A stretch of DNA of 64,000 nt, taken from sequence record MN013077.1; one strand, 5' to 3'. This document shows, one piece after another, positions 3,676-19,954 of this stretch (position 1 is its first letter; every line of letters begins with the position of its first letter). The stretch comes from Klebsiella phage vB_KaeM_KaOmega. A model generated the notes under the pieces. The model ran no database searches, was not told the origin of the DNA, and saw only the letters and a program-made list of their open reading frames with translations. Both the position numbers and the translations under genes were made by a program.

Positions 3676-4778
3676 TCAAGACGTGGATCGAGAAGGGTCG
3701 CCAGATTAAATCTCGCGGCATCGCTCTCACTCACCGAGATCAGGGCTACAGCGCGAATAACCGCCACGTCAGCCTCCTGACCAAATCTGAAGTTGACCCT
3801 GACAAGCTCACGGTTGAACTCATCAAATCCCTCGAACAGGTCACTCTGTCCATCTCTATGGAAGAGTATCTGCGTCGCTTCTTCCACCTGTGGAGTGGAG
3901 ATGCGGAGTTGCTCACCAAAGTGCTGGGCATGAAGACCGAGTTCGAACAGTCCGTCGAAGACAACCCGCCGGAAGATGATTCTTGGGAAGCAGACTGGAA
4001 TGAGCGCCACCAGAAATATCTGGAAGAGAAGCTCTCCTCTGTATCCATCATCAAGAAAGCGAAGGCTGGCGACGAACTGTCACTGCTTGAACAGTTTGAA
4101 CTCATCAAGGCCCGTAAGGACTTCGAAGATGGTTGCCTGAAAATGGACCTCGACTTCGGTGATGTGAAAACTGTAACCGAACCCGCTGCGGAAGTCAAGC
4201 CTGCTGTGGAAACACAAAAGTCCAAGACTACTGTAGCGCCAACTGAAAGCTCCGCTGGAGCGACTATCAAACCCGACGAGGAGATTCCCGTGGAGAAAGA
4301 AGTTGATGTAACCAAATCTGCTGCTTTTATCGAAATGCAGAAAGCGTTGGCAGAGCAGACTGAATTGATGAAAGCTATGCAGGCTCAGGTAGCCGATGCA
4401 CAGGAAATCATCAAAGCTCAGAAAGCCGCTAAACGCGCTGTAGCTGTCGAGAAAGCTGCTGGCTTTACTTTCGTAGCCGCCGATCAGCGTGAAGCTATTG
4501 CTGACGTGATCGAAAACCCTGCTCAGGCAACTCTGGTAGCTGTACTGGAGAAAGCCGCTGCGGATCTGAAAGCAAAAGACGAAGCTCTGGCTGCTAAAGA
4601 TCTGGAGATCGAAGAAGTCAAGAAATCCTTCGCTAATGGCAAAGAAGTCGGTGCTGATGGCACTCTGACTGAAGTAGCCAAGGGTTCCGAAGATGCGCAG
4701 GCTCGCCTGGACCGTATCATCGCCGAGAAAGTGGAACTGGCTAAAGCCAAACAAACCACTGAATTTGTTAACGCCTAA
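3672..4778 (+). CDS. scaffolding protein
   Basis: 368 aa, Glu/Ala/Lys-rich with predicted coiled coil and an acidic middle. It lies upstream of the decoration and capsid genes. Confidence 0.6.
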   Translation: MIKTWIEKGRQIKSRGIALTHRDQGYSANNRHVSLLTKSEVDPDKLTVELIKSLEQVTLSISMEEYLRRFFHLWSGDAELLTKVLGMKTEFEQSVEDNPPEDDSWEADWNERHQKYLEEKLSSVSIIKKAKAGDELSLLEQFELIKARKDFEDGCLKMDLDFGDVKTVTEPAAEVKPAVETQKSKTTVAPTESSAGATIKPDEEIPVEKEVDVTKSAAFIEMQKALAEQTELMKAMQAQVADAQEIIKAQKAAKRAVAVEKAAGFTFVAADQREAIADVIENPAQATLVAVLEKAAADLKAKDEALAAKDLEIEEVKKSFANGKEVGADGTLTEVAKGSEDAQARLDRIIAEKVELAKAKQTTEFVNA

Positions 4779-4795: not shown

Positions 4796-5254
4796 ATGGC
4801 TAAAGCACACGTTGCTACTCTCGAAGGTAACTACTCTGACATCGTTCTGGGCCGTGTTGTTGCCTTTGGTGACACTGGTTGGAACTTCAAAGAAGTTGAC
4901 ATGACCTACATCGCATCTGATGCCGATGCAGACTCTAAAACCACCCTGTTCGCAGGGATGCTGGTTGGTGAAGACGGTACTCCGGTAGCCGCTCCTGCTA
5001 ACTCTGCCGACATTTATGGTGTTCTGGTTGACCGTAAGGTACTGCCGGGCTACGAATACTTCACTGGCGTGTTTGAGCCGGGTGAGAAGGTTCCGATGGT
5101 TCTGGCTGTTCGTGGTCTGACCCTGAACGCACTGAAAGTCAAATACGCTGACGGCACCGCGATCGACGCCGCAGGTATCAAGGTTCTGGAAGCCCAAGGT
5201 AACCAGGTAACTGATAAGATTGTCGGCACCCAGTTCATCGGTTCCGTACTGTAA
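4796..5254 (+). CDS. head decoration protein candidate
   Basis: 152 aa, Gly/Val-rich beta-type, immediately upstream of the major capsid gene, matching lambda D-E order. Confidence 0.45.
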   Translation: MAKAHVATLEGNYSDIVLGRVVAFGDTGWNFKEVDMTYIASDADADSKTTLFAGMLVGEDGTPVAAPANSADIYGVLVDRKVLPGYEYFTGVFEPGEKVPMVLAVRGLTLNALKVKYADGTAIDAAGIKVLEAQGNQVTDKIVGTQFIGSVL

Positions 5255-5274: not shown

Positions 5275-6273
5275 ATGCAAAACGGTAATTTCCAGATTCT
5301 TGATTACTCTGGCCTGATCTCCACCATGCCACGTGTGGACACTCTGCTCCAGAGCATGAACCTGTTCACCGAGCATTTCGGTCGTACCACTGTTGCCCGT
5401 ATCGAACGTGAAGACGACGGTGCTGGCGAGATCAAAGCTGTTCAGCGTGGTGGTGTGCGTCAGCACCTGGCTAACAACCGTAAGAAAATTGTTAACCTGA
5501 ACATCCCGTTCTTCCCTCTGGACCGTTCTATCGACCGTGCAGACATTCAGAACTTCCGTGAGTTCGGTACTCCGGATGCTCCTGCGACTGTAGAGGCTGA
5601 AGTTCAGCGTCACATGGCTCGTATTCGTCGTAGCCACGCGATCCTGAAGTCCAAAGCGATGTATGCGGCTCTGAAGGGCACCTCCTGGTCTCCTGATGAT
5701 CCGGTTAGCGATTACAACTACTACGAAGTTTGGGGCGCAACCCAGACTACCGCAGATGTTGACTTCACCAAGTTGGGCGTTGACCCGATCGAGGTACTGG
5801 AAGCTGAAGCACGTGCTCACATCATCGACTGGGCTGGTGACAACGGTGACAACTACGAGATCGTCGTTCTGGCATCCCGTCAGTGGTTCTCCGCTCTGAT
5901 CGCTCACCCGCAGGTGACTGGTGCGTACTCTCAGTACCCATCCACTCAGGAAATGCTGCGTCGTCGTCTGGGCGGTAACGCTAACAACCGTATCTTCGAA
6001 CACAAGAACATCCTGTTCATCGAAGATATCTCCGGTAACATCCCGGCAGGTGAAGCGTACATCTTCCCACGTGGTATCTCTCGTATGTTCGAGATCTACT
6101 ACGCGCCGAGCGACACCCTGCGTGACGCTAACAAGGTGGCTCAGGAACTGTACGTGTTCTTCAAAGAGTCCGACTACCTGCGTGAAGCGAAGATCGAATC
6201 CGAGACTTCCTTCCTGACTGTAAACAACCGTCCTGAACTGGTTGTTAAGTCAACAGGTAAGTTCACCGCTTAA
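5275..6273 (+). CDS. major capsid protein (lambda gpE-like)
   Basis: 332 aa with recalled similarity in layout and motifs to the gpE family. It is followed by a strong terminator, as expected for a highly expressed gene. Confidence 0.75.
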   Translation: MQNGNFQILDYSGLISTMPRVDTLLQSMNLFTEHFGRTTVARIEREDDGAGEIKAVQRGGVRQHLANNRKKIVNLNIPFFPLDRSIDRADIQNFREFGTPDAPATVEAEVQRHMARIRRSHAILKSKAMYAALKGTSWSPDDPVSDYNYYEVWGATQTTADVDFTKLGVDPIEVLEAEARAHIIDWAGDNGDNYEIVVLASRQWFSALIAHPQVTGAYSQYPSTQEMLRRRLGGNANNRIFEHKNILFIEDISGNIPAGEAYIFPRGISRMFEIYYAPSDTLRDANKVAQELYVFFKESDYLREAKIESETSFLTVNNRPELVVKSTGKFTA

Positions 6274-6393: not shown

Positions 6394-7008
6394 ATGGCAC
6401 AACCTCACCTGGAAGTCTTCCAGAGCGAATATCACATGCTCAAGTTCTTCGGACAATACCTGCCGAAACTGGACGTTGACGCATCAGCCCGACTGGCCCC
6501 ATTCCTGTATTCATACGATGGTGAACTGGTAATGGGTCGTAACCTTTATGAGTTCCTGAACCAGATTGAAGCGATGACTGCCTTGGGCATCAACACTATT
6601 GCATCGGTCCAGAAAGGCGCTGCATTCCTGATCTTCTTCGATGAGACTCCTAAGTCCCCTGAGAAGTTCTTGGCTAATATCGGAGAGATCAAAGCGGCTC
6701 GTGCCAATGTGATCCCGGAAGATATTGAGACCGAGGTGGAATCACCGCTGTCCTCTCTGGTACAAACAACTGTAATCGATCCTACCCCTGAAGTCAAGGA
6801 AGAAGTGAAGGAAGAGGAAAAAACTGCCTCTACCCGCACCGATGAGCAGAAGGCAGAGATCCTGGCTCATGCAGAAACCCTGCGTGATGACACCAAAAAG
6901 GCGGCTGCTAAGGCTGCGCTGGAATCCTACGCTTTGACTATGGAGATCTCTCTGAGCAAGGCTAAGACTTTTGACGCAATGTTGGAAGACCTGAAAGCTG
7001 CACTGTAA
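6394..7008 (+). CDS. hypothetical protein, acidic C-terminal half
   Basis: 204 aa with a GGAG RBS; unknown function. Confidence 0.55.
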   Translation: MAQPHLEVFQSEYHMLKFFGQYLPKLDVDASARLAPFLYSYDGELVMGRNLYEFLNQIEAMTALGINTIASVQKGAAFLIFFDETPKSPEKFLANIGEIKAARANVIPEDIETEVESPLSSLVQTTVIDPTPEVKEEVKEEEKTASTRTDEQKAEILAHAETLRDDTKKAAAKAALESYALTMEISLSKAKTFDAMLEDLKAAL

Positions 7009-7068: not shown

Positions 7069-10000
7069 ATGGCACAATATGAAGATAAGGTCGTAGAAGT
7101 TCTGGTGACACTCCCAGAGCCGTCTGCGAGCACCTCTGGTGGTTCTGGTGCGCCGTTCACGGGCATCGAGACCCAAGACACTGTATCCACCACACTGATT
7201 GGTGACGGTACTCAATCCTCTCCTCTGCAAGCAAACATCAATATTTCCCGCCGCACTGGTAACCGCCTGCAAGTGGTTAGCTCCTCCAGCGAGCAGGGTC
7301 TGTATGTTGCTGGCTCTGACACCAAGGTGTCTGCGAAAGATGGCAACACCGTAACTTACATCTCCGCACAAGAAGCAGCTAACGCTGGCAACCCCGCGCT
7401 GGAAGGTGTATACTCCGATCCGGTAAACGTGTCAACCACGTCACCGAAGAAGACTCTGGAAATCAAAGCCGACCCGACAGGTAAAGCCAAGACCCAGATC
7501 GACGTGATCGTTGACCCAGCGGCACAGAACGCTTTGGTTGCTGGCTCTGCTGGCCTGAGTGTACCTGTTTCTGCCGCACAAGACAACACTTTGGAAATCC
7601 GCCAGGGTGCTCTGTACGTTCGTCCTCAAGAGACCAAAATCTCTCAAGACCCGAACAACAAAATCGAAGTCAAGCCTGACGGTATCTATGTTGAAACCGT
7701 GAAGGGTGATAAGGGCGATACCGGGGCCACAGGCCCGGCTGGCCCAGAGGGTCCAGAAGGTCCGGAAGGCCCTCAAGGCCCAGAAGGTCCGCAGGGACCG
7801 CAGGGCGAAAAGGGCGATAAAGGTGACACCGGGGCAACTGGTGCGACTGGCCCGGCGGGTGCTACAGGTGCTCGTGGTCCAGAAGGTCCTAAAGGCCCAG
7901 CGGGGATCGGTATCAACGTTATCGATCAACTGGACGACGTTTCTCAGCTTCCGGCTGTTGCAGAGATGGAACTGGGTGACACCTACGTTATCGGTCAGAA
8001 CTTCTGGACTGTTGTGAATGAATCCAACGTCAAGCAGTGGAAAGACATCGGTAACTTTGCAGGCCCAGAAGGTCTGTCTGCCTATGAAGTTGCAGAGGCC
8101 GCAGGTTTCGTCGGTACTGTTGACGAATGGCTGGCATCCCTGAAAGGGGCTGATGGTATCGGTCTGCAAATCCTTGGGGCATTCAGCGATCCTTCTTTCC
8201 TTCCTATGGAGGGTAACAACCCGGGTGACTGCTACATCATCAACGACCTGATGTACGTATGGACAGGTGAAGAAGATAAGTGGCAGACTGTCGGTCAGAT
8301 CGGTCCAGAAGGTAAATCTGCGTATCAGGTATGGCTGGCTAACGGTCACACCGGGTCTCAGGTTGACTTCCTGAACTCCCTGATTGGCCCGCAGGGTCCA
8401 AAAGGGGACAAGGGTGACAAAGGCGACCCGGGCGTAGACGGTAAAAACGCGAACGCCATCAACATCCTTGGTAAGGTTGCTGACGAAGCAAGCCTGCCAG
8501 CGGGTGCTGACGCAGGTGACGCATACCTCGTAGGAACGAACGTGTTCGTTTCTGACGGCGCAGGTAACTGGGAAAACTTGGGTTCCTTCCAAGGCCCAAA
8601 AGGTGATAAGGGCGATACTGGTGCTACTGGCCCGCAGGGAGAGAAAGGTGATCAGGGTGATGTCGGTAAAGACAACTACGCACTGGCAGTCGAAAATGGC
8701 TTCCAAGGTTCCCTGACTGAATACCTCGCATCCTTGAAAGGCGAGAAGGGTGATGTAGGCCCAGCGGGTCCTCGTGGTAACCCGGGTGCAACTGGCCCCC
8801 AAGGTCCTGTCGGTGAAGGTCTGACCATTCTTGGTACGAAAGCCAACGAGGGTGAACTACCTGCTGACCCGACGGTCGGTGATGCGTGGCTGATCGGTGA
8901 CGACCTGTTCATCTACAACGGGACTGCTTGGCAGAACGTTGGCCCTGTTCGTGGTCCGAAGGGTGACACCGGGGCAACTGGCCCGGCTGGCGCTAAAGGT
9001 GACAAAGGCGACACTGGCGATGAAGGTCCTGAAGGTCCGCAAGGTCCTAAAGGTGACCAAGGTGACGTAGGTCCTAAAGGGACTAGCCTGAACCCTAAAG
9101 GTACTGTTCCTACCGAAGCAGATCTCCCAACAGAAGATAACGCCAATGGCGACTTCTGGACCACTGTTGATACAGGTGAAGGTTTTGCCTGGGACGGCCT
9201 ACAGTGGGTCAACACCGGGATGGCCCGTGGTAACACCGGACCTCAAGGTGAAAAAGGGGACAAAGGCGATAAGGGTGACCAAGGCGATAAGGGCGACAAC
9301 GGCGCGGGTCTGACCCCTAAAGCGTCTGTAGCTAACGAAGCTGCTCTGCCTGCCACTGGAAACACCGTGGGTGACTTCCGTGTTGCTGAAGACACTGGCA
9401 TCGGTTACTCTTGGGACGGTAGCGCTTGGATCAATATGGGCACCACTCGTGGTCCTAAAGGTGATCAGGGTGATGTTGGCCCGCAGGGTCCTAAAGGGGA
9501 TACTGGTGACGCAGGTCCACAGGGCGAAACTGGCCCGGCAGGCCCAGACGGTCCAGAGGGTCCTCAAGGTCCTATCGGGCCTCAAGGCGATATCGGTCCG
9601 CAGGGACCTCAAGGTCCGCAGGGTGACATCGGCCCTGGTGTCGAGATCCTGGGTAAACTCAACAGCACTTCAGAACTTCCTTCTACCGGGACGCTGGGTC
9701 AAGGTTATCTGATCGACGGCGACTTCTGGGGGTGGACTGGTTCTGCCTACGAGAACTTGGGTCGTATCCAAGGTCCGGTTGGGCCTGTAGGTCCAACTGG
9801 TGACCAAGGGCCTCAAGGTCCGCAGGGGGTTAAGGGTGACAAGGGTGACCAAGGTTCCTTGTGGATCGTGTTTGACCGTGACCCGGGTACAGCCGATGGT
9901 CGTGTTGGTGACTACTTCCTGAACTCCTCAACGTTGCAGTTCTTCCGTAAGACGAACGCAACCACTTGGGCACCGATGGGTTACATGGGCGGCGGCAACG

Positions 10001-10422
10001 TCTATGATTCCCCGAAAGACGGTAAGCAGTATGCCCGTATCGACGGGGATTGGACCCCGGTAGAGGTTCTGGAAGCCCCAGAAGACTCCGGCTACTACGT
10101 TCGCGTGGACGGTGCATGGAAGAAGTTGGATCGTTACGACCTGCGTGTGATGTCTGCGACTGGCGCACTGGATGCTTCCGTATCCAACGTGTTCACCGTT
10201 GATGGAACCACGTCTAAGGCAATCACCATCTCCAACCTGCCAGCAGGTCGTGCGATGACTGTGGTTGTTAAGTTCCTCGGTAAAGGTGGGTCCATGACCT
10301 GGCCTACCCCGATGGCATGGTCTAACGGCACCCAGCCAGCGCTTGGTACTACCCGTACCATCCTGACGTTCTTCTGGGACGGCACGGACCTGACTGGTGT
10401 TCAGGCGATGACTGTAGACTAA
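7069..10422 (+). CDS. collagen-like repeat fibre protein
   Basis: 1117 aa. At least 9 G-X-Y tracts ([17 protein letters not shown]...) alternate with a repeated ~45-aa module (LP..GD.Y.....W...G..W.N.G) and SAYEVA..G...V.EWLASLKG units. The N-terminus [11 protein letters not shown] resembles the sheath protein N-terminus. Confidence 0.85.
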
Positions 10423-10462: not shown

Positions 10463-11113
10463 ATGGCTGTAGATCCTACCAGCAAGGTTTATGCTTGGAC
10501 ACCGATGATTCGTTTGTCCGACATGAAATATCCTGTCTATCTTAGCGACTTCCTCAAAGAACATACCAACGTAAGTATCGGTTCTTACGTTTGGGAAAAG
10601 GACATGCGTGACCTGTGGGGTTACTGCATGGTCCATGATTCTGAAGTTCCTGTCGGTGATGTCGTTACCGAAGGAAAACCGGAGCTAAACGAAGAAGATG
10701 ACCTGTGGTACAAGACTTGGGTTGCTCGTGATTTCTATCCTGAAGAGATCGCAGAGAACTTGGCCCGTGCCAAGGAAGATCACCGTATCCGAGCTTACCA
10801 ACAGTACACCTCTGACCTAACCTCCGGCGTGACCGTAGATGGGCAAGTGTTCTCTGTTGAGCCACGAGAGCTTATCAACTTGGATACCATCAAGGCATAC
10901 GCCCAAGCGCATCCTGATGACAATATCCTGATCCGCACATCTGATTTCGGAACGCTTTCTCTACCATCCACCGATGCTGTAGAGAAGATCAATACGATCA
11001 TGATTGCAACCGGGAAGGTTCACCAGAATCTCCTGGCTTACGTAAAAACTGTGTACGACACTGAAGTCATCACAGATATCCCTGAAGTCCCTCAAACTTT
11101 CGTAGGAGAATAA
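10463..11113 (+). CDS. hypothetical virion or assembly protein
   Basis: 216 aa with an AAGGAG RBS. Confidence 0.55.
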   Translation: MAVDPTSKVYAWTPMIRLSDMKYPVYLSDFLKEHTNVSIGSYVWEKDMRDLWGYCMVHDSEVPVGDVVTEGKPELNEEDDLWYKTWVARDFYPEEIAENLARAKEDHRIRAYQQYTSDLTSGVTVDGQVFSVEPRELINLDTIKAYAQAHPDDNILIRTSDFGTLSLPSTDAVEKINTIMIATGKVHQNLLAYVKTVYDTEVITDIPEVPQTFVGE

Positions 11114-11114
11114 C

Positions 11115-11438
11115 ATGGCAGCAATTGGCGGCGCGTCCCTCGGTGTCCTGACTGGTTACCAGATTATGGATCAGGCAACAGGAGAAAGCAAGACCATCTC
11201 TGAACTTTTCGCAGGTGGCGGCGGTACTCCGGGACCTAAAGGCGACAAAGGTGATACGGGAGCTACCGGACCAGCAGGCCCAGCAGGCCCGGCTGGGGCG
11301 GCAGGTGCAGACGGAGAAGACGGCGTTGGAATCACCAACATTGCGTCCTCTCAAAATGGCAACACCGTTACCCTGACCTTCACTATGTCTGACTCTACAA
11401 CGAAGACCGTAACTTTCGATCTTCCAGCATCAACATAA
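11115..11438 (+). CDS. small collagen-like repeat protein
   Basis: 107 aa with a [34 protein letters not shown] tract and a short beta C-terminus. Its start overlaps the upstream stop (TAACATGG). Confidence 0.6.
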   Translation: MAAIGGASLGVLTGYQIMDQATGESKTISELFAGGGGTPGPKGDKGDTGATGPAGPAGPAGAAGADGEDGVGITNIASSQNGNTVTLTFTMSDSTTKTVTFDLPAST

Positions 11439-11505: not shown

Positions 11506-11535
11506 GGTTGCACTGGCTAAATCGTGGAGACTATT

Positions 11536-12063
11536 ATGACCAACGAACAAGTAATTGAGCTTGTCCGTGTCCTCCTTGGTGGGATCACCACTGAGGAAAT
11601 TTCGGACCAGACGATCATCTTCTTCTGGACCAAGTGGAAGCTGACGTATGATTTGGATAATCACCCGGAGAAGATTCCGGTGGCCCTGTACAACACCGTT
11701 GTTGACTGTGTGCGTTGGTTGATCGTACAAGAAGTCTCCAGCGGAAATTCATCAATTCGTGAGCGATTTGAAAAGATCGGTGATGAGACCATCTCCATCA
11801 AGGGCGGATCAAGCTGGCAATCCTGGAAAGACTTCCTTGATTGGCTGGAACTGAACCCTGATTACATTGACCCATCTCTGAACTTCAACTCCTCCCTTGT
11901 CATCATCGGCGGTGTTCGTAAAGATGAGTTCTTCCGTGTGAAGAATAACCCTAACTCCTACAACGGCTTTATGGAGCAGGGTGTTTATCCTACCCCGGCG
12001 ATCCCTAAGCAGTCAGCATGGCCTTGCACTGCTGCTCGCCGTAGTCCTTGGATGGTCCGCTAA
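11536..12063 (+). CDS. head-tail joining or head completion protein candidate. ATG start preferred, with a GGAGA RBS; the ORF is open from GTG at 11524.
   Basis: Position between head and tail modules; unknown family. Confidence 0.45.
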   Translation: MTNEQVIELVRVLLGGITTEEISDQTIIFFWTKWKLTYDLDNHPEKIPVALYNTVVDCVRWLIVQEVSSGNSSIRERFEKIGDETISIKGGSSWQSWKDFLDWLELNPDYIDPSLNFNSSLVIIGGVRKDEFFRVKNNPNSYNGFMEQGVYPTPAIPKQSAWPCTAARRSPWMVR

Positions 12064-12125: not shown

Positions 12126-12587
12126 GTGGCAAAGAAGTCATTCACTGACATCTCTGAATTGAAGCGGTATTTCAGCCAACTCTCTGATTTAGCTGAGAAA
12201 GAAGTGGAGTCCGGTTTTTACGACGACAAACACTATTCTGGGCTGAATATGGCGACTCTTGCCGCCATCCATGAAGAAGGCTGGAATAACCTTCCTGAGC
12301 GTAACTTCATGTTCTCAACCTCCCTGCACTTCCAAGAAGGTCTCCGCAAGCATATCAAACGTATGCACAACGGGATCATCCAAGGTCGGCATTTCAACAG
12401 CTACCTTGAGAAAATCGGAAAGGACGCAGCAGACAGTATTCGCTTCACAATCTCAACAGGTACATTCAGCAATCCAAAGGTATCAAAAGACTGGGCGAGT
12501 TACAAGGGGTTCGATGACGCAATGATTCACTACGGTGACTTGTCGAGTGCGGCAACGTACAAGGTCGTCAAGTACCAAGGCAAATAA
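12126..12587 (+). CDS. neck or head-tail adaptor candidate
   Basis: 153 aa; synteny only. Confidence 0.4.
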   Translation: MAKKSFTDISELKRYFSQLSDLAEKEVESGFYDDKHYSGLNMATLAAIHEEGWNNLPERNFMFSTSLHFQEGLRKHIKRMHNGIIQGRHFNSYLEKIGKDAADSIRFTISTGTFSNPKVSKDWASYKGFDDAMIHYGDLSSAATYKVVKYQGK

Positions 12588-12597
12588 GGGGTGACTG

Positions 12598-13044
12598 ATG
12601 GCATTGCCAAGAGCTTATTCGTTGCTCTCAAGCCGCAACAAACTCATCCCCCGTGTCGAAGTGCAATGTCGGAAACGTGAGTGGGTTAAGACTGACCCGG
12701 ACAGTCCGTTTCTGAACGGAGGGCGGGAGGTCCTGTACACCCCGTTCACTGCCGTTGAATGCACCATTCAACCGATGCGTGGGAAAGCAATTCGTGACCA
12801 GAACAACCAGTTGATGATCGGCGGTGAAGAGGATTATGATTCCTACACCGTTTACTCTGAGACTCTTCTGTTCCGAGCACGAGAGGGCACAGAACATCTT
12901 TCCGATCAGATGTTGCTGCCGGACTCCGGCGGCGGTGAGACATGGTTCACAGTGATGAAAGCGGATATGTATCCGTCTTCCGGTGTGAAGCGTTACCGCT
13001 ATTACCTGATCGCTGTCCCGGTAGGGACTGAGGGAGGACTATAA
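12598..13044 (+). CDS. tail completion or neck protein candidate
   Basis: 148 aa; its start overlaps the upstream stop. Confidence 0.4.
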   Translation: MALPRAYSLLSSRNKLIPRVEVQCRKREWVKTDPDSPFLNGGREVLYTPFTAVECTIQPMRGKAIRDQNNQLMIGGEEDYDSYTVYSETLLFRAREGTEHLSDQMLLPDSGGGETWFTVMKADMYPSSGVKRYRYYLIAVPVGTEGGL

Positions 13045-13751
13045 TGGCCCTCCCTCTTGATTTTACAAACTCAGATGTCGTGATGGGAGCATTGACCAAG
13101 GCTGTCGGTCGTCTCTGTCTGGACGTAACGGGATATGATGTCGTTGAAGCTGATGAGACCATTCCAAAACCGGAAGGGCCATACATCCTCGTAGACCTGT
13201 CTCTGCTTACCCCTCTCGACTGGGCAACAAACGAAGTGGTTGATGAAGATGGGGTCGTTCATACGGCTCACAACTACACTGCCAGCTATACCCTCACCGC
13301 TTACCGTGGGAAACCTCACTGGGCATTGTCCCGGGTGCATCAGGCTTTCGGCCTACCGTTCCTTCGTGAGAAATACTTCCCAACGGGATCTCCATATGCG
13401 TACTCTTCCACCTCAAACATTGCTCGAATGCGTGTACCGCTGAACCAGCAAATGTTCGAGAATCGGGCGCGAACCATTGTTACTTTCAATGCGACATTCG
13501 TAGAGAAAGATCTTGGGACGTTCGAGGATATCGAGCACATCATTATCGGGATCGATGTTGACAACCCTTCAGGTCCGCCTATTGGTATTGAAGCAGACTA
13601 TGACGAAGGTGTCAAGCCCGGCGGTGATGACCCTGGCCTTCCACCAAAGCCTAACCCTCCGATCGTCTACCATGACGCTATCGCACAGGTTTGTATGGCA
13701 ACTCCGGTTATTGATAAGCCAGCGCTTATCAGTGACAAGACGGGGGAGTAA
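13044..13751 (+). CDS. tail terminator or sheath-completion candidate
   Basis: 235 aa with a Pro-rich C-terminus; synteny only. Confidence 0.4.
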   Translation: MALPLDFTNSDVVMGALTKAVGRLCLDVTGYDVVEADETIPKPEGPYILVDLSLLTPLDWATNEVVDEDGVVHTAHNYTASYTLTAYRGKPHWALSRVHQAFGLPFLREKYFPTGSPYAYSSTSNIARMRVPLNQQMFENRARTIVTFNATFVEKDLGTFEDIEHIIIGIDVDNPSGPPIGIEADYDEGVKPGGDDPGLPPKPNPPIVYHDAIAQVCMATPVIDKPALISDKTGE

Positions 13752-13811: not shown

Positions 13812-15233
13812 ATGGCTGAATATCAAGACAAGGTTGTTGACGTTGAGGTTAGCCTTGGCACTCAACCAATCGACACCGTTGGCTTTGAAACCCCGATGTT
13901 CCTGGCAATCCACAACAACTTCCCAGAGCGTGTCCGTTTCTACGTGTCCACTGCTGGGATGATTGCTGATGGTTTTGCAGTAGGTTCCCCGGCTTACCAG
14001 TTCGCCACTAACGCATTCGCAGGGAACTTCGCCCCGCAGCGTGTTGGTATCGGACGTATGGCGATGGGATCTACCAAGGTGGACTTCACCGGGACCTCAA
14101 ACACCGAGCAGGTTGTCGTTAATATCACCTTGAATAAGATCGTCAAGGCTGTTAAAATTAACGTACTGCCTGGCAATACCCCGGCACAGATTGCTACCGC
14201 ACTGGCTGATGCGGTGACCGCAGATGCAGACCTGACTGGTAAAGTCACTGCCACGGCTACCGGAACTTATGTCACATTCGAGGCAGTGTCTCCGAACGTT
14301 GTGAGTGTAGGTAAAGGTGCAGGCAACTACAAGATCGTTAACGAGTCTACCGAGACTGTTGCTACTGCACTGCCTTTCGTTATCGCAGAAAACCACAACT
14401 GGTACTTCCTGTCTACCGAAGCTCGTGCAGATGCGGACATCGTAGCGGCGGCTGAGTTCTCCAAGGCGAACTATAAGCTGCACGTTTATAACTCCACCGA
14501 TGTGGACGCTTACGCCCCTGAGAACTCTGCGGCTTCTGTGTTTGACACGCTGAAGTCTCTGAGCTACGACTCTCTGGGAACCTCCGACGCTGGCGCTGAC
14601 GTTGACTTCACTGAAGGCTCCGTTATCGGTGCGATGGCTGCGAACGATCCTTCCTACGGTGACTCCCTGCACCTGAAAACGATGCCGGGTATGGTTCCGT
14701 TTGTTGGCTCTGACACTCAGCGTTCAAACGCTTGGTCTCGTAACGCAAACATCTACCGTAGCCTGTACGGCGGTGGTAGCTACATCGAAGGTAAAACTTC
14801 TTCCGGTCAGTACGTTGACGTGATTCGCTTCTCCCACTGGGTGAAATTCCGTATGGAAGAATCCGTGTTCGCGTACATGAAGCGCCGTTCTGACATGGGT
14901 CTGTCCATGAAGATGAGCGACGAAGACCTTCCTGTTCTGAAGTCTGTACTGATGAACAACCCGATCAACATCGGTATTCGTAATGGTGCAATCCTGACTG
15001 GTTACGACACTGAAAACAAAGTGTCCTACGACCCGACAATCACTATTCCGAAACGTGCCGAGATCCCGACGAATGACCTTGCTGCACGTATCCTGCGTGA
15101 TGTGAAGGTAGAGCTTGTGTACAACAACTCTCTGCACTACGTCAAGATCCGCGCCGCCGTTGTTCTGGATCGTCCGGCGGGCCAGAGCACTAACGCTCAG
15201 ACCCCGATGTCTTCCTCTGCTGTAGGAGTGTAA
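13812..15233 (+). CDS. tail sheath protein (contractile tail)
   Basis: 473 aa followed by a 160-aa tube candidate, a frameshifted chaperone and the tape measure, matching P2/Mu order (FI-FII-E/E'-T). Downstream W/J/I-like baseplate genes support a myovirus. Confidence 0.55.
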   Translation: MAEYQDKVVDVEVSLGTQPIDTVGFETPMFLAIHNNFPERVRFYVSTAGMIADGFAVGSPAYQFATNAFAGNFAPQRVGIGRMAMGSTKVDFTGTSNTEQVVVNITLNKIVKAVKINVLPGNTPAQIATALADAVTADADLTGKVTATATGTYVTFEAVSPNVVSVGKGAGNYKIVNESTETVATALPFVIAENHNWYFLSTEARADADIVAAAEFSKANYKLHVYNSTDVDAYAPENSAASVFDTLKSLSYDSLGTSDAGADVDFTEGSVIGAMAANDPSYGDSLHLKTMPGMVPFVGSDTQRSNAWSRNANIYRSLYGGGSYIEGKTSSGQYVDVIRFSHWVKFRMEESVFAYMKRRSDMGLSMKMSDEDLPVLKSVLMNNPINIGIRNGAILTGYDTENKVSYDPTITIPKRAEIPTNDLAARILRDVKVELVYNNSLHYVKIRAAVVLDRPAGQSTNAQTPMSSSAVGV

Positions 15234-15236
15234 TAG

Positions 15237-15719
15237 ATGCTGAACCAATCCAAAATCCTGACGCTTCAGGCGTATGACCCGGCGAAAGTCTTGGTCTTTA
15301 TTGGTGGACAGCGTGTCTCTGGATTTGCAGCGGATACGAAGATCGTTATTACTCGTAACAACGACAACATCTCCGTTCATGCGGGTGTTGACGGCGAGAT
15401 CAGTAACGCACTGTCCCGTGACAACACCGGGGTTATGACCCTCTCTCTCCAGAACACTGCCAAATGGAACGGCTATCTGGCTCAGTGGCAGCGTCAGGCT
15501 AACGTAACTGGCCTGATTTACCTGCCAGTCCAAGTCGAAGGTTCTCAGGGCCTGTCCCTGAACACCATCGGTTGGATTCAGAAACAGCCTGACCTGAGCT
15601 ACGGCTCCGAAGTCGGTCAGATGGACTGGGAGATTGGTGTACTGGACGCATGGCTGTCTCCGGACCAGATCCAAGGCGTCGCCGCTGGCCTGACCGGGCT
15701 GGTTGGTCTGGACCAATAA
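15237..15719 (+). CDS. tail tube protein candidate
   Basis: 160 aa directly after the sheath gene. Confidence 0.5.
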   Translation: MLNQSKILTLQAYDPAKVLVFIGGQRVSGFAADTKIVITRNNDNISVHAGVDGEISNALSRDNTGVMTLSLQNTAKWNGYLAQWQRQANVTGLIYLPVQVEGSQGLSLNTIGWIQKQPDLSYGSEVGQMDWEIGVLDAWLSPDQIQGVAAGLTGLVGLDQ

Positions 15720-15790
15720 CAACGTGAGCCACATGGATGTGGCCTTTTCTCACGGTATGGACTTTTCAACAGAAGACACAGGAGTGTATC

Positions 15791-16258
15791 ATGTTTAAGG
15801 TTAAGAAGTCAACAGACATTGTTCTGTGTGGCGGAAAGCGCTTTACTGTATATCACTGGTCACCGAGCCAAGTCATTCGAAACATGCCTAAAATTGGTCG
15901 TCTTGTGGCGGTTCCGATGGGCACAGTTGCCGGGTCTGCCCTGGCAAAAGGGGAAGGCTTCCACGATGCCCTTCCAACAGCGATCCTGTACATCCTTGAC
16001 CAGATCGAGGACGGCGGTGAAGAGATCATCAACATGTTGCTCGAAGGTGTAGAAGTAGACAGCATGGGTGGTCCAATCGACATTGATGAAGTGTTTGATG
16101 GACACGTCGAAGACCTGATTACATTGCTCGGAAAGGTAGTTGAAATCAACTATGGCTGTTTTTTCAGCAAGAGCGGTTTCGGGACCATCGACAGCTTCCT
16201 CAAGAGTCTGGGGCTGGCACGAGCGGTGGACAACCTGGACAACCAGACGGAAACCTGA
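15791..16258 (+). CDS. tail assembly chaperone (gpG/E-like)
   Basis: Acidic ~155-aa protein directly upstream of the tape measure. ATG preferred at 15791 with an AGGAG RBS. It contains a slippery heptamer. Confidence 0.6.
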   Translation: MFKVKKSTDIVLCGGKRFTVYHWSPSQVIRNMPKIGRLVAVPMGTVAGSALAKGEGFHDALPTAILYILDQIEDGGEEIINMLLEGVEVDSMGGPIDIDEVFDGHVEDLITLLGKVVEINYGCFFSKSGFGTIDSFLKSLGLARAVDNLDNQTET

Positions 16259-19099: not shown

Positions 19100-19954
19100 A
19101 TGGCTGTGAACAACAATTTTATTTCGCCTGCCCAGCAGGCTCAGGCAGATAAGCGGGCACGAGACGCTGCCGCTGCCAAGAGAAAGCAGGATACGGAAGT
19201 CAGTAACGCCAAGTCTCGTGAAGACATTCAGTACACGATGTTCGTTTCTGGCCTGCGCCGTGGTCGCCTTAACGAGTTCGAGAGTAAAAACCAGACCGAT
19301 GATCTGGCAATCCTCTTCGACTCCGTTACCAACCATACTTACACAAAGGACTACAACAAGTCAAGTTATGCGGTGGAATCAAAGGCAAAAGCCTCTGACC
19401 ACGTAACAACGCAGGATGGCAAGTTCACGTTCTCCGGTACAGTTACCGACTCCCCTTATCTTATCGACCCTCGCAACATGATCGACAGGGATACGGACAA
19501 GGACAACCCAATGCTCGCCCGACGCCCGGCGAAGGCGATTGAGATTCTGGAACTCATTGCTGACTCACATCAGCTTGTAACTCTCGTCACTGAAGACAAT
19601 ATCCTGACTAACTATGTCATTACCAACTTCCAGATTGATCGTAATGACCAGACAGGATCTTCAATCGGCGTCCAAGTGACTCTCGAAGAGTTCCGTTTCA
19701 AGAATGCCAATAAAACTGTCTTGGCCCGAACTGCCGATCCAAAAAAGGCTGGCAATGCCAACTCCGGGACTAAACAGACGGCTGAAGGCGGTGCTGTGGA
19801 TGATAGCGCCAAACAGAAGCGTCAAACCCCGTACATTGGGAAAAATGCTGCAATAAAAGAACGTTGGGAAAATGCCGCTGTCGGCACAACGGACTTCTCC
19901 GGTAAGCCGGGGGCGAAGCTGCCATTTGACCCTAACTCACTCAAGAGGCCGTAA
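19100..19954 (+). CDS. baseplate or tail protein (post-TMP position)
   Basis: 284 aa; synteny with Mu/P2-like baseplate assembly genes. Confidence 0.45.
   Translation: MAVNNNFISPAQQAQADKRARDAAAAKRKQDTEVSNAKSREDIQYTMFVSGLRRGRLNEFESKNQTDDLAILFDSVTNHTYTKDYNKSSYAVESKAKASDHVTTQDGKFTFSGTVTDSPYLIDPRNMIDRDTDKDNPMLARRPAKAIEILELIADSHQLVTLVTEDNILTNYVITNFQIDRNDQTGSSIGVQVTLEEFRFKNANKTVLARTADPKKAGNANSGTKQTAEGGAVDDSAKQKRQTPYIGKNAAIKERWENAAVGTTDFSGKPGAKLPFDPNSLKRP

Follow-up and report, generated by a model that had tools for sequence, protein, structure and literature searches.

A collagen-like phage fibre shares its N-terminal arm with the tail sheath: a candidate donor-strand anchor in Certrevirus

Genes at the locus

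The window, by which we mean the whole 64,000-nucleotide stretch of Klebsiella phage vB_KaeM_KaOmega (MN013077.1) analysed here, is from a Certrevirus (Vequintavirinae) close to phage phiTE, and the features that concern us are collected in Table 1. The collagen-like fibre is encoded within the head module, where its gene is flanked by those for the major capsid protein and the adaptor and is close neighbour to the gene for the capsid 'Pagoda' decoration protein. Its product matches phrog_3904 ('tail fiber protein') over both the N-terminal domain (E=9e-34) and the C-terminal domain (E=1e-88). The body of the fibre alternates eight collagen runs of G-X-Y repeats, 309 aa in total, with globular beads of ~55 aa, and ends in foldon-like motifs followed by a conserved C-terminal domain. 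The sheath protein, besides its match to the phiTE sheath, also matches phi92 gp130 (E=2e-50).

The fibre is a component of the particle, a point left in question by the original prediction: it has been detected in virions by mass spectrometry (CB7_10, W70_131). The W70 spectral counts do not track copy number, with tail fibres exceeding the sheath per kDa, and are unusable for stoichiometry. The 216-aa neighbour encoded directly 3′ of the fibre is likewise present in virions (CB7_11, W70_130). This protein accompanies the fibre body and not its N-terminal arm, occurring with the body in jumbo phages that have no arm and being absent from Kashira/ABPH49, in which the arm is present; these two patterns rule it out as an adaptor for the arm and suggest that it is likely a fibre-tip partner or a chaperone. 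The original prediction had also spoken of collagen-like whiskers. In the T4 sense this is not supported, since Fibritin_C reaches 17 bits (E=0.0065), below the cut-off of 21, and the shaft is made of collagen and beads with no coiled coil.

Table 1. Positions of the fibre, terminator, sheath and neighbouring features in the window
Feature	Position	Strand	Description
Collagen-like fibre gene	7069-10422	+	1117 aa; Pfam Collagen PF01391 E=3e-34
Fibre N-terminal arm, residues 1-15	7069..7113	+	sheath S4 strand copy; proposed donor-strand anchor
Fibre linker, residues 16-29	7114..7155	+	Pro/Gly/Ser-rich; from homologue comparison; proposed flexible tether
Fibre N-terminal shaft domain, residues 30-210	7156..7698	+	from tblastn and HMMER homologues
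Fibre body (collagen runs, beads, foldon-like motifs, C-terminal domain)	7699..10422	+	
216-aa virion protein, phrog_4998	10463..11113	+	directly 3′ of the fibre gene
'Pagoda' capsid decoration gene, phiTE_217 homologue	11115-11438		
Tail terminator gene	13044..13751	+	235 aa; PF23961
Tail terminator C-terminal hairpin strands HIIIGIDVD, PIGIEADYD	13536..13604	+	
Tail terminator third C-terminal strand, residues 207-220	13662..13703	+	IVYHDAIAQVCMAT; second S4-like strand of the window
Tail sheath gene	13812..15233	+	473 aa; PDB 9cb9 (phiTE sheath) E=5e-295
Sheath N-terminal arm, residues 1-15	13812..13856	+	strand S4 of the hinge/handshake sheet spans residues 3-15 (EYQDKVVDVEVSL)
Sheath acceptor strands S1 (407-413), S2 (427-436), S3 (443-451)	15030..15164	+	ranges from PMC11972413, mapped to the window; proposed docking surface

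The arm common to fibre and sheath

Both genes start where the original prediction had placed them, and their products do share an N-terminal arm, which in the sheath reads MAEYQDKVVDVEVSL. The reported count of 11 identities in 15 residues was one too high. Ten positions are identical (M, A, Y, D, K, V, V, V, V, L), and at the other five the fibre and the sheath differ by four conservative exchanges (Q/E, E/Q, E/D and T/S) and by one L/E. As had also been claimed, there is no likeness past the arm: the similarity ends at residue 15, after which the sheath continues GTQPIDTVGF... Among the 144 ORFs of at least 100 aa in the window, the fibre and sheath form the sole outlying pair, with 9 of 14 identical residues after the Met against 6 for the next-best pair, and pairs this alike are expected by chance 2e-4 times in the window. 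When all six frames were scanned for Y.DKVV, tolerating one mismatch, the fibre and sheath starts were returned together with one frame-shifted chance match and nothing else. The bare 8-mer MAYxDKVV is not diagnostic, because it also opens unrelated IscU-like proteins of marine viral contigs; at the DNA level, the pattern ATG-GCN-(NNN)-TAY-NNN-GAY-AAR-GTN-GTN falls mostly in IscU-like genes of viral contigs, and its remaining matches are sheaths, fibres and a handful of further ORFs that are short or unrelated. The case for the arm goes beyond the 8-mer and is built on its length, its presence in the same genome and its conservation.

The likeness is one of protein and not of DNA: codon choice differs at 6 of the 10 identical residues, and upstream of the two genes the DNA shows no relationship, the 5′ flanks giving no alignment and having no promoter- or terminator-like site in common. 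This is the outcome of the nucleotide comparison of the two 5′ ends that had been proposed as a check: likeness is absent upstream, and codons differ within the arm. In L138 the fibre and the sheath both begin MAEYQDKVV, again with different codons at 5 of the 8 compared (Y4-V11).

The residues common to the two arms (Y4, D6, K7, V8, V9, V11, V13 and L15) are those kept across ~110 sheath homologues, and the fibre arm conforms to the sheath N-arm signature Y-x-D-K-V-V-[DE]-V-x-V-x-L of the same phage group. Of 21 distinct proteins that carry the arm, all have Y4 and D6, 20 have K7, 20 have V9 and 18 have V8. The two arms differ at positions 10, 12 and 14, each of which falls between hydrophobic positions, an alternation that would be expected if the varying residues lay on one face of a strand. 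At the level of sequence, the fibre arm is a terminal segment beyond the globular fold, joined through the variable linker of residues 16-29 to a shaft that starts at about residue 30.

The arm in other phages

Nor is the arm a peculiarity of this phage, a doubt that had accompanied the original prediction. It is kept on fibre homologues in Certrevirus, Septuagintavirus, Seunavirus, Vequintavirus (Av-05) and further lineages, and Y-x-D-K-V-V heads fibre-like proteins in at least seven of them. The bodies behind it differ: besides collagen-bead fibres, it heads a protein of 545 aa without collagen (Av-05), a SASA carbohydrate esterase (P0216; PF03629, E=1e-14) and a protein of 1667 aa with an unrelated body (L157). 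The same collagen fibre body, in turn, has other N-termini in the jumbo phages Ea35-70 (gp298) and EL (gp156). The arm thus behaves as a lineage-specific attachment module, found before varied bodies and replaced before the same one, and the fibre body behaves as a mobile cargo module. Between the two, the linker of residues 16-29 varies among lineages in both sequence and length. With the N-domain of the fibre as query, a word-index search of proteins gave two fragments, and tblastn and exhaustive HMMER searches took its place. With tblastn against phages, the shaft domain returned 66 records, all of Vequintavirinae type, and all 14 homologues retrieved by HMMER, that is, those aligned from the N-terminus, begin with the arm. 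As far as these alignments indicate, the shaft domain always stands behind the arm and is confined to Vequintavirinae-type phages.

Strand S4 in the sheath and its place in the terminator

The notion that sheath N-terminal arms are donated as beta-strands to neighbouring subunits, from which the original prediction started, is borne out by the phiTE cryo-EM structure, in which sheath residues E3-L15 form strand S4 of a four-stranded inter-subunit hinge (handshake) sheet (PMC11972413). S4 is the pivot strand of this sheet, and S1-S3 complete it (PMC11972413). In our sheath alignment the acceptor strands S1-S3 are nearly invariant, with many positions fully so.

The tail terminator has strands of this type as well. 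[quoted passage not shown] The C-terminus of the window terminator is identical to that of phiTE, and we infer that its segments HIIIGIDVD and PIGIEADYD match particular terminator strands. The third strand has the arm signature in the window and in 40+ homologues (IVYHDAIAQVCMA, ITYHDKVVTVCME, IVYNDKIVSVCLE), the form common to terminator strand and fibre arm in this phage group being Y-x-D-x-[VI]-[VA]-x-V. In one relative (L173), 18 consecutive nt are identical between the two, which argues that terminator strand and fibre arm are exchangeable. Terminators usually donate one strand (PMC11972413), and those of Seunavirus and Vequintavirus have a single C-terminal strand, so that the head-end S4 position may be unfilled in those fibre-bearing lineages. 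Terminators of the SSBI34 and Kashira types appear, from their sequences, to carry a two-strand hairpin, which we count against the docking proposed below.

In the 3.3 A connector map of phiTE, terminator strands are reported in all S4 positions of the two head-proximal rings, with no unassigned strand and no fibre density reported, and the fibre is neither modelled nor mentioned in that structure (PMC11972413). The 'third putative fibre' of phiTE may be the counterpart of the window fibre, but phiTE_241, the sole 'tail fibre' gene in the original record, is the likelier candidate. In phi92, the sheath arm is present and there is no second arm-bearing protein, and the cryo-EM model of that phage has no additional fibre class at the neck, a combination that we count in favour of the docking proposed below. 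A sequence search did not find the fibre among PDB chains of at least 20 residues, and when the PDB was queried by sequence with the fibre, with its N-domain and with the 216-aa neighbour, the outcome was collagens or no match. AlphaFold2 run on fibre residues 1-215 without an alignment gave a pLDDT of 32 and no usable model.

Discussion

We propose, with a probability of roughly 50%, that the fibre arm serves as a modular donor-strand anchor, by which receptor-type fibres dock into a handshake site of the sheath where the tail meets the head. Residues 1-15 of the fibre would imitate S4, the arm that each sheath subunit lends to the hinge sheet of the subunit below, and would insert by beta-sheet augmentation into the S1-S2(-S3) acceptor of the sheath. 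The Pro/Gly/Ser linker would tie this arm to the trimeric fibre, and the result would be long, flexible host-binding fibres hanging from the tail-neck junction. We infer both that the arm binds an S4-type slot and where that slot lies. The original prediction suggested that the fibre could plug into the sheath lattice or into a partner of the sheath, the terminator or the neck ring. Docking at the terminator or neck end is now an idea with a mechanistic basis, because the signature recurs in the terminator, in a strand that occupies an S4 slot by cryo-EM; on the other side, the head-end slots of phiTE are reported as filled by the terminator and the fibre is not part of the model. Since those slots are filled and the terminator C-terminus is the same in the window, the arm there would have to share the slots or compete for them, use the site of the displaced ring-1 arm, or be bound at low occupancy.

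The alternative that retains most weight, though we consider it rather unlikely, is that the arm anchors the fibre elsewhere, on the capsid or on the portal-proximal neck, by beta-augmenting another hairpin (e.g., in the capsid E-loop sheet). The protein would then be a head fibre, and its likeness to the sheath would reflect an old capture of a strand-forming segment. The location of the gene in the head module beside the Pagoda gene points in this direction, as do the RefSeq name of a small neighbouring protein (head fiber protein) and a phiTE neck map without a free S4 slot. Certrevirus phages are flagellotropic, and the flagellotropic myophage 7-7-1 touches flagella with capsid fibres; this and the gene order count against docking at the sheath. 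However, the head-anchored proteins of this group use another N-terminal anchor (MA..G..G..Y..L.D..TG), found on Pagoda and on the 859-aa proteins of L156 and L165 and absent from the fibre. A head fibre also leaves unexplained both the signature in the S4-slot strand of the terminator and the 18-nt identity in L173, and the arm retains exactly the sheath-conserved positions over at least seven lineages.

It is improbable that the arm works in assembly and not as a permanent anchor, binding S4 slots that are still open where the sheath is growing, or those of free subunits, and thereby timing fibre loading, aiding termination or competing with the terminator tail, and being displaced or only partly bound in the virion. 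As a contractile tail is assembled, the growing head end of the sheath exposes its acceptor hairpins until the terminator caps it, which would provide such an opportunity. Donors also outnumber slots in phiTE-type phages, where the ring-1 arms are displaced and the slots are held by terminator strands. Nevertheless, the cargo resembles receptor-binding or enzymatic fibres that need to stay on the virion, and the fibre is recovered from purified virions.

We see only a slim chance that the arm is a recombination scar, formed when the opening codons of a sheath-like gene became fused to a fibre body, and persisting without specific binding. Fibre bodies are mobile among unrelated phages, and short exchanges do occur, as the run in L173 illustrates. 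Against this, Y4 and D6 have stayed invariant and K7 and V9 nearly so in 21 diverged arms while the adjacent linker varies freely, and the combination of amino-acid identity with synonymous divergence indicates that the arm is under purifying selection. Chance similarity, of which the MAYxDKVV starts of unrelated IscU-like proteins show that short matches are possible, and the common translational or regulatory signal that the original prediction had offered as an alternative are effectively refuted by an expectation of 2e-4 in the window, retention of the motif in many lineages, unalignable upstream DNA, differing third-codon positions, and a third copy of the motif that lies at a protein C-terminus, 3′-terminal in its gene.

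To our knowledge, completion of the handshake sheet by a non-sheath protein is known for two lattice-capping proteins only, namely the terminator and the initiator. For a fibre to borrow the handshake strand as a portable anchor would be a new, previously undescribed attachment principle for phage appendages. If true, sheath docking of the fibre would account for the exchange of very different cargo modules on one virion chassis, would locate an abundant virion protein to which the phiTE structural atlas assigns no position, and would make this protein a candidate for the fibre with which Certrevirus phages bind flagella. For phage and tailocin engineering, a tag of 15 residues by which proteins could be loaded onto a contractile tail would also be useful. 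We extend the idea only tentatively, as a doubtful generalization, to a class of Vequintavirinae host-binding fibres (collagen-bead, esterase-bearing and others) that would be mounted at the head end of the sheath by a portable copy of the hinge strand of 12-15 residues, exchanging or competing with the terminator tail. The sheath would then serve as a socket for swappable receptor-binding modules, and the fibres would be coupled to the type of strand on which contraction pivots.

Comparison with known systems

In chaperone-usher pili, the N-terminal extension strand of one subunit completes the beta-sheet of another. This donor-strand complementation belongs to the same general mechanism class as the docking that we propose, but the fold and the system are unrelated. 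The capsid fibres of flagellotropic myophage 7-7-1 and the head filament of phiCbK also invite comparison. These are long and flexible and make the first contact with the flagellum, and the window fibre is itself encoded in a head module; unlike what we propose for the latter, they are anchored on the capsid, and sheath-arm mimicry is not reported for them. Neck and collar appendages, including T4 fibritin (wac), the XM1 collar spikes (gp40), the phi29 pre-neck appendages and the neck fibres of A-1(L), are fibrous or enzymatic structures at the head-tail junction, and the foldon-like motifs near the C-terminus of the window fibre add to the likeness. They attach, however, by collar domains or coiled coils to neck proteins and not by a copy of the sheath arm.

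Within the contractile tail, the sheath initiator (T4 gp25, TssE, phi92 gp139) is a non-sheath protein that is connected with the lattice through the handshake sheet as well. The initiator offers an acceptor hairpin at the baseplate end, whereas the fibre would offer a donor strand, for which an acceptor is free at the head end only. The terminators of R-type pyocin, Milano (gp18) and phiTE resemble the proposed docking in that a strand from a non-sheath protein replaces the sheath arm in the four-stranded sheet. Those terminators are tube-capping ring proteins that close the lattice with a C-terminal strand; in the fibre, the strand is N-terminal and is followed by a flexible linker and a cargo of ~1100 residues, and its binding is proposed from sequence. 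A further likeness is to the capsid linking proteins LP1 and LP2 of Milano, in which a near-identical N-terminal strand on two proteins occupies quasi-equivalent sites. Although these sites are on the capsid and involve no sheath handshake, and the cargo is an Ig-like domain or none, LP1 and LP2 provide a precedent for reading a shared terminal strand as a shared docking site.

Results

The downstream protein proposed to be the sheath is indeed the sheath, with matches at E=5e-295 to the phiTE sheath structure (PDB 9cb9) and at E=2e-50 to phi92 gp130, and its residues 1-15 (MAEYQDKVVDVEVSL) resemble the N-terminal arm of the fibre. The shared arm is real and, as originally described, ends at residue 15 of both proteins with no likeness beyond, but identities number 10 of 15, one fewer than the 11 first counted; four of the five other positions carry conservative changes. 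Among the 144 window ORFs of at least 100 aa, the pair is the sole outlier, with 9 of 14 residues identical after Met against 6 for the next-best pair and 2e-4 such pairs expected in the window. The likeness is confirmed and lies far beyond chance. A strand profile scan of the window found only three real proteins (fibre N-terminus, sheath N-terminus and terminator C-terminus), a result that is partly circular because all three strands were in the training set. A DNA-pattern scan for the motif was swamped by IscU/NifU-like Fe-S scaffold genes on marine viral contigs (L010-L129), which begin MAYSDKVVDHY..., a chance overlap.

Fibre and sheath use different codons for six of the 10 identical residues, and the 80 bases 5' of the two starts do not align and hold no common promoter- or terminator-like site. 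At the related locus L138, where both proteins begin MAEYQDKVV, five of the eight compared codons (Y4-V11) differ. It is therefore the protein that is conserved, and the regulatory or translational signal raised as an alternative in the original prediction can be set aside.

Over the surrounding 10 kb, Enterobacter phages ENT3 and vB_ExiM_F1M1E match the window at 97-98% identity, and Cronobacter phage CR3 and Pectobacterium phage phiTE at ~88%; all four are myophages and belong to Certrevirus, a genus of the subfamily Vequintavirinae. The fibre is a virion protein, with 39 peptides (46% coverage) in purified CB7 and the highest spectral count in purified W70. Neither CB7 nor W70 virions yielded the 204-aa protein; its C-terminus matches phrog_1051 ("minor head protein inhibitor of protease"), and its homologue at L173, a metagenomic locus, carries PF26097 Phage_Inh_N.

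Genes and segments around the fibre and sheath
Feature	Coordinates	Strand	Remarks
Decoration protein	4796-5254		
Major capsid protein	5275-6273		
204-aa protein	6394-7008	+	Upstream of fibre
Collagen-like fibre	7069-10422	+	
Foldon-like motifs of fibre	10012-10161	+	Residues 982-1031
216-aa protein	10463-11113	+	phrog_4998; virion protein
Small collagen-like protein	11115-11438	+	phiTE_217 ("Pagoda") homologue
Adaptor	11524-12063		
Neck protein	12126-12587		
Head-completion protein	12598-13044		
Tail terminator	13044-13751		
Third strand of terminator	13662-13703	+	Residues 207-220
Sheath	13812-15233	+	PDB 9cb9 match
Tube	15237-15719		
Chaperone and tape measure	After tube		
Tube-initiator-like protein	19100-19954		

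The likeness extends well beyond the window. Homologous fibres bearing the arm occur in Certrevirus (phiTE, CR3 and others), Salmonella phage SSBI34, Septuagintavirus (A7_1, UPEC06), Serratia phage Kashira, ABPH49, Seunavirus (4MG, GAP31, PVP-SE1; MADYNDKVVNAELIL), rV5-like Av-05 (MDYKDKVVNAEVIL) and several metagenomic contigs. Exhaustive HMMER searching of 1.8 billion representatives gave 55 proteins; the 14 retrieved from these, among them every one aligned from its N-terminus, all start with the arm. Y4 and D6 never change among the 21 distinct arms compared, and K7 (20/21), V9 (20/21) and V8 (18/21) seldom do, while the linker that follows varies freely in sequence and length. A conserved strand, variable tether and conserved shaft look like the pattern of a tethered docking peptide.

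Behind the arm stand collagen-bead fibres of 585-1266 aa, non-collagen proteins of 510-593 aa, an unrelated 1667-aa protein (L157, motif starting at residue 25) and, in P0216 (697 aa, from the exhaustive search), a shaft followed by a SASA sialate-O-acetylesterase-type carbohydrate-esterase domain (PF03629, E=1e-14), an enzymatic cargo on the same anchor as the fibre. The same bead-and-collagen body and C-terminal domain recur in jumbo phages Ea35-70 (gp298) and EL (gp156) behind quite different N-termini. This variety on both sides marks the fibre body as mobile cargo and the N-terminus as the part fitted to the recipient virion. EL gp156 and its adjoining lipase gp157 (L132, 2825-7425) have a common N-terminal motif, AN.QARVLDARTR[WY]LKE, and form another pair of proteins with one presumed anchor. 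Two foldon-like motifs precede the C-terminal domain of the window fibre, whose hit to Pfam Fibritin_C (E=0.0065) falls short of the cut-off.

The 216-aa protein goes with the fibre body and not with the arm, which favours a role as tip partner or chaperone over one as receptor for the arm. In jumbo phages its homologues (EL gp154, Ea35-70 gp297) adjoin the gene for the fibre body, and others, in Psa21, Noxifer and Ralstonia RSF1-like phages, were found by tblastn only. Fibre and partner behave as a cassette moving between unrelated phage families.

According to the phiTE cryo-EM study (PMC11972413), a four-stranded "hinge sheet" holds the sheath lattice together, with S1 (D407-P413) and S2 (I427-V436) from one subunit, S3 (Y443-V451) as the C-terminal arm of a second and S4 (E3-L15), the pivot that rotates in contraction, as the N-terminal arm of a third. 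The segment common to fibre and sheath is therefore exactly the donated strand. The phi92 cryo-EM study describes the same handshake of N- and C-terminal arms, and about 110 sheath homologues retain the arm as MA(x)Y.DKVVDV.V.LGTQPI.

Besides fibre and sheath, the terminator also carries a copy of the strand. In phiTE, its C-terminal extension donates three strands: a pair standing in for S3 and S4 on ring 1, where the sheath arm is forced into another conformation, and a third taking the S4 place between rings 1 and 2 (PMC11972413). The window terminator has an identical C-terminus, and its third strand (IVYHDAIAQVCMAT) resembles S4. More than 40 homologues read ITYHDKVVTVCME, IVYNDKIVSVCLE, IRYNDRIVTV, FTYIDTIVTV and the like, with the signature Y-x-D-x-[VI]-[VA]-x-V. 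The last strand is thus a sequence mimic of the sheath arm, more clearly in relatives (ITYHDKVVTVCME, IVYNDKIVSVCLE) than in the window; the accessible text of the phiTE paper describes the structural mimicry and not the sequence likeness (PMC11972413). At L173 (ENA contig k141_467213), terminator strand and fibre arm share an uninterrupted 18-base identity (GATAAGGTTGTAGAGGTG; 4504-4563 and about 10660-10720), also present at L139 and L174, and the sheath arm there uses different codons. It looks as though the 5' terminus of the fibre gene recently exchanged sequence, by gene conversion, with the 3' terminus of the terminator gene. Such an exchange would mean that a fibre-type sequence works at a position that cryo-EM shows as an S4 slot, and is the strongest indirect evidence for the fibre arm as a ligand of the S4 type. 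An internal YLNKVVNATV in the L153 homologue (15224-16135) of the tube-initiator-like protein agrees at 7 of 10 positions with the sheath arm of the same phage and is missing from the window protein; the agreement may be accidental or mark another handshake mimic.

Discussion

We consider handshake-type docking of the fibre arm at the head end of the tail about as probable as all other readings together (roughly 0.5). In the handshake, the ring nearer the head supplies the donors and the ring beneath it the acceptor hairpin, with the last acceptor, at the baseplate, supplied by the sheath initiator. Acceptors lacking a sheath donor occur only at the head end, where the terminator fills in, and it is there that the arm would dock. 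Terminators of Seunavirus, Av-05 and L157 stop after one strand, the usual number according to the phiTE authors (PMC11972413), and in these fibre-bearing lineages the arm could supply a fourth strand that may be missing from the top hinge sheet. That the fibre plugs into the sheath lattice or neck, as originally proposed, is the best-supported reading, strengthened by the terminator strand, but for this phage it conflicts with the published phiTE map, which has no free S4 slot and no mention of extra density (PMC11972413). In phiTE-type phages, including this one, the arm would therefore have to alternate with terminator strands, occupy the displaced ring-1 arm's site or have low occupancy. 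The fibre, phiTE_215, is absent from all deposited chains and is not placed in the paper, where pTE203 is the next most abundant unassigned protein after pTE217 (PMC11972413), a ranking that suggests a low-copy fibre. In phi92 we found no second arm-bearing protein, and its model has no neck fibres.

A less probable but serious reading is that the arm anchors the fibre elsewhere. The flagellotropic phage 7-7-1 captures flagella with capsid fibres, in contrast to the neck position proposed here, and this keeps a capsid anchor alive; the capsid-hexamer decorating proteins of the group, however, use a different N-terminal anchor, which argues against the fibre using their site. The Pagoda-type anchor, MA..G..G..Y..L.D..TG, also heads 859-aa proteins of other lineages, at L156 (5165-7744) and L165 (5160-7736). 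Pagoda itself is an unmodelled protein at capsid hexamer centres in phiTE (PMC11972413), and its anchor points to a second portable system, for the capsid. Action of the arm at assembly time is unlikely, and a functionless scar somewhat more so. With 2e-4 pairs expected, differing codons and unrelated upstream DNA, chance or a nucleic-acid signal is very improbable.

The variety of cargo, esterase included, is typical of host-binding fibres. The fibre has 309 residues in G-X-Y runs, and collagen rises ~0.29 nm per residue; we estimate that collagen runs and beads together would about equal the length of the tail (~100-120 nm), so that a fibre docked at the neck could reach baseplate level. Since Certrevirus phages are flagellotropic, such a long, flexible fibre would be a reasonable flagellum-catcher. 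Our literature search found no paper describing fibre attachment through a mimic of the sheath-handshake strand. Non-sheath strands that complete the sheath handshake are already known; what is new is their proposed use for attaching a fibre.
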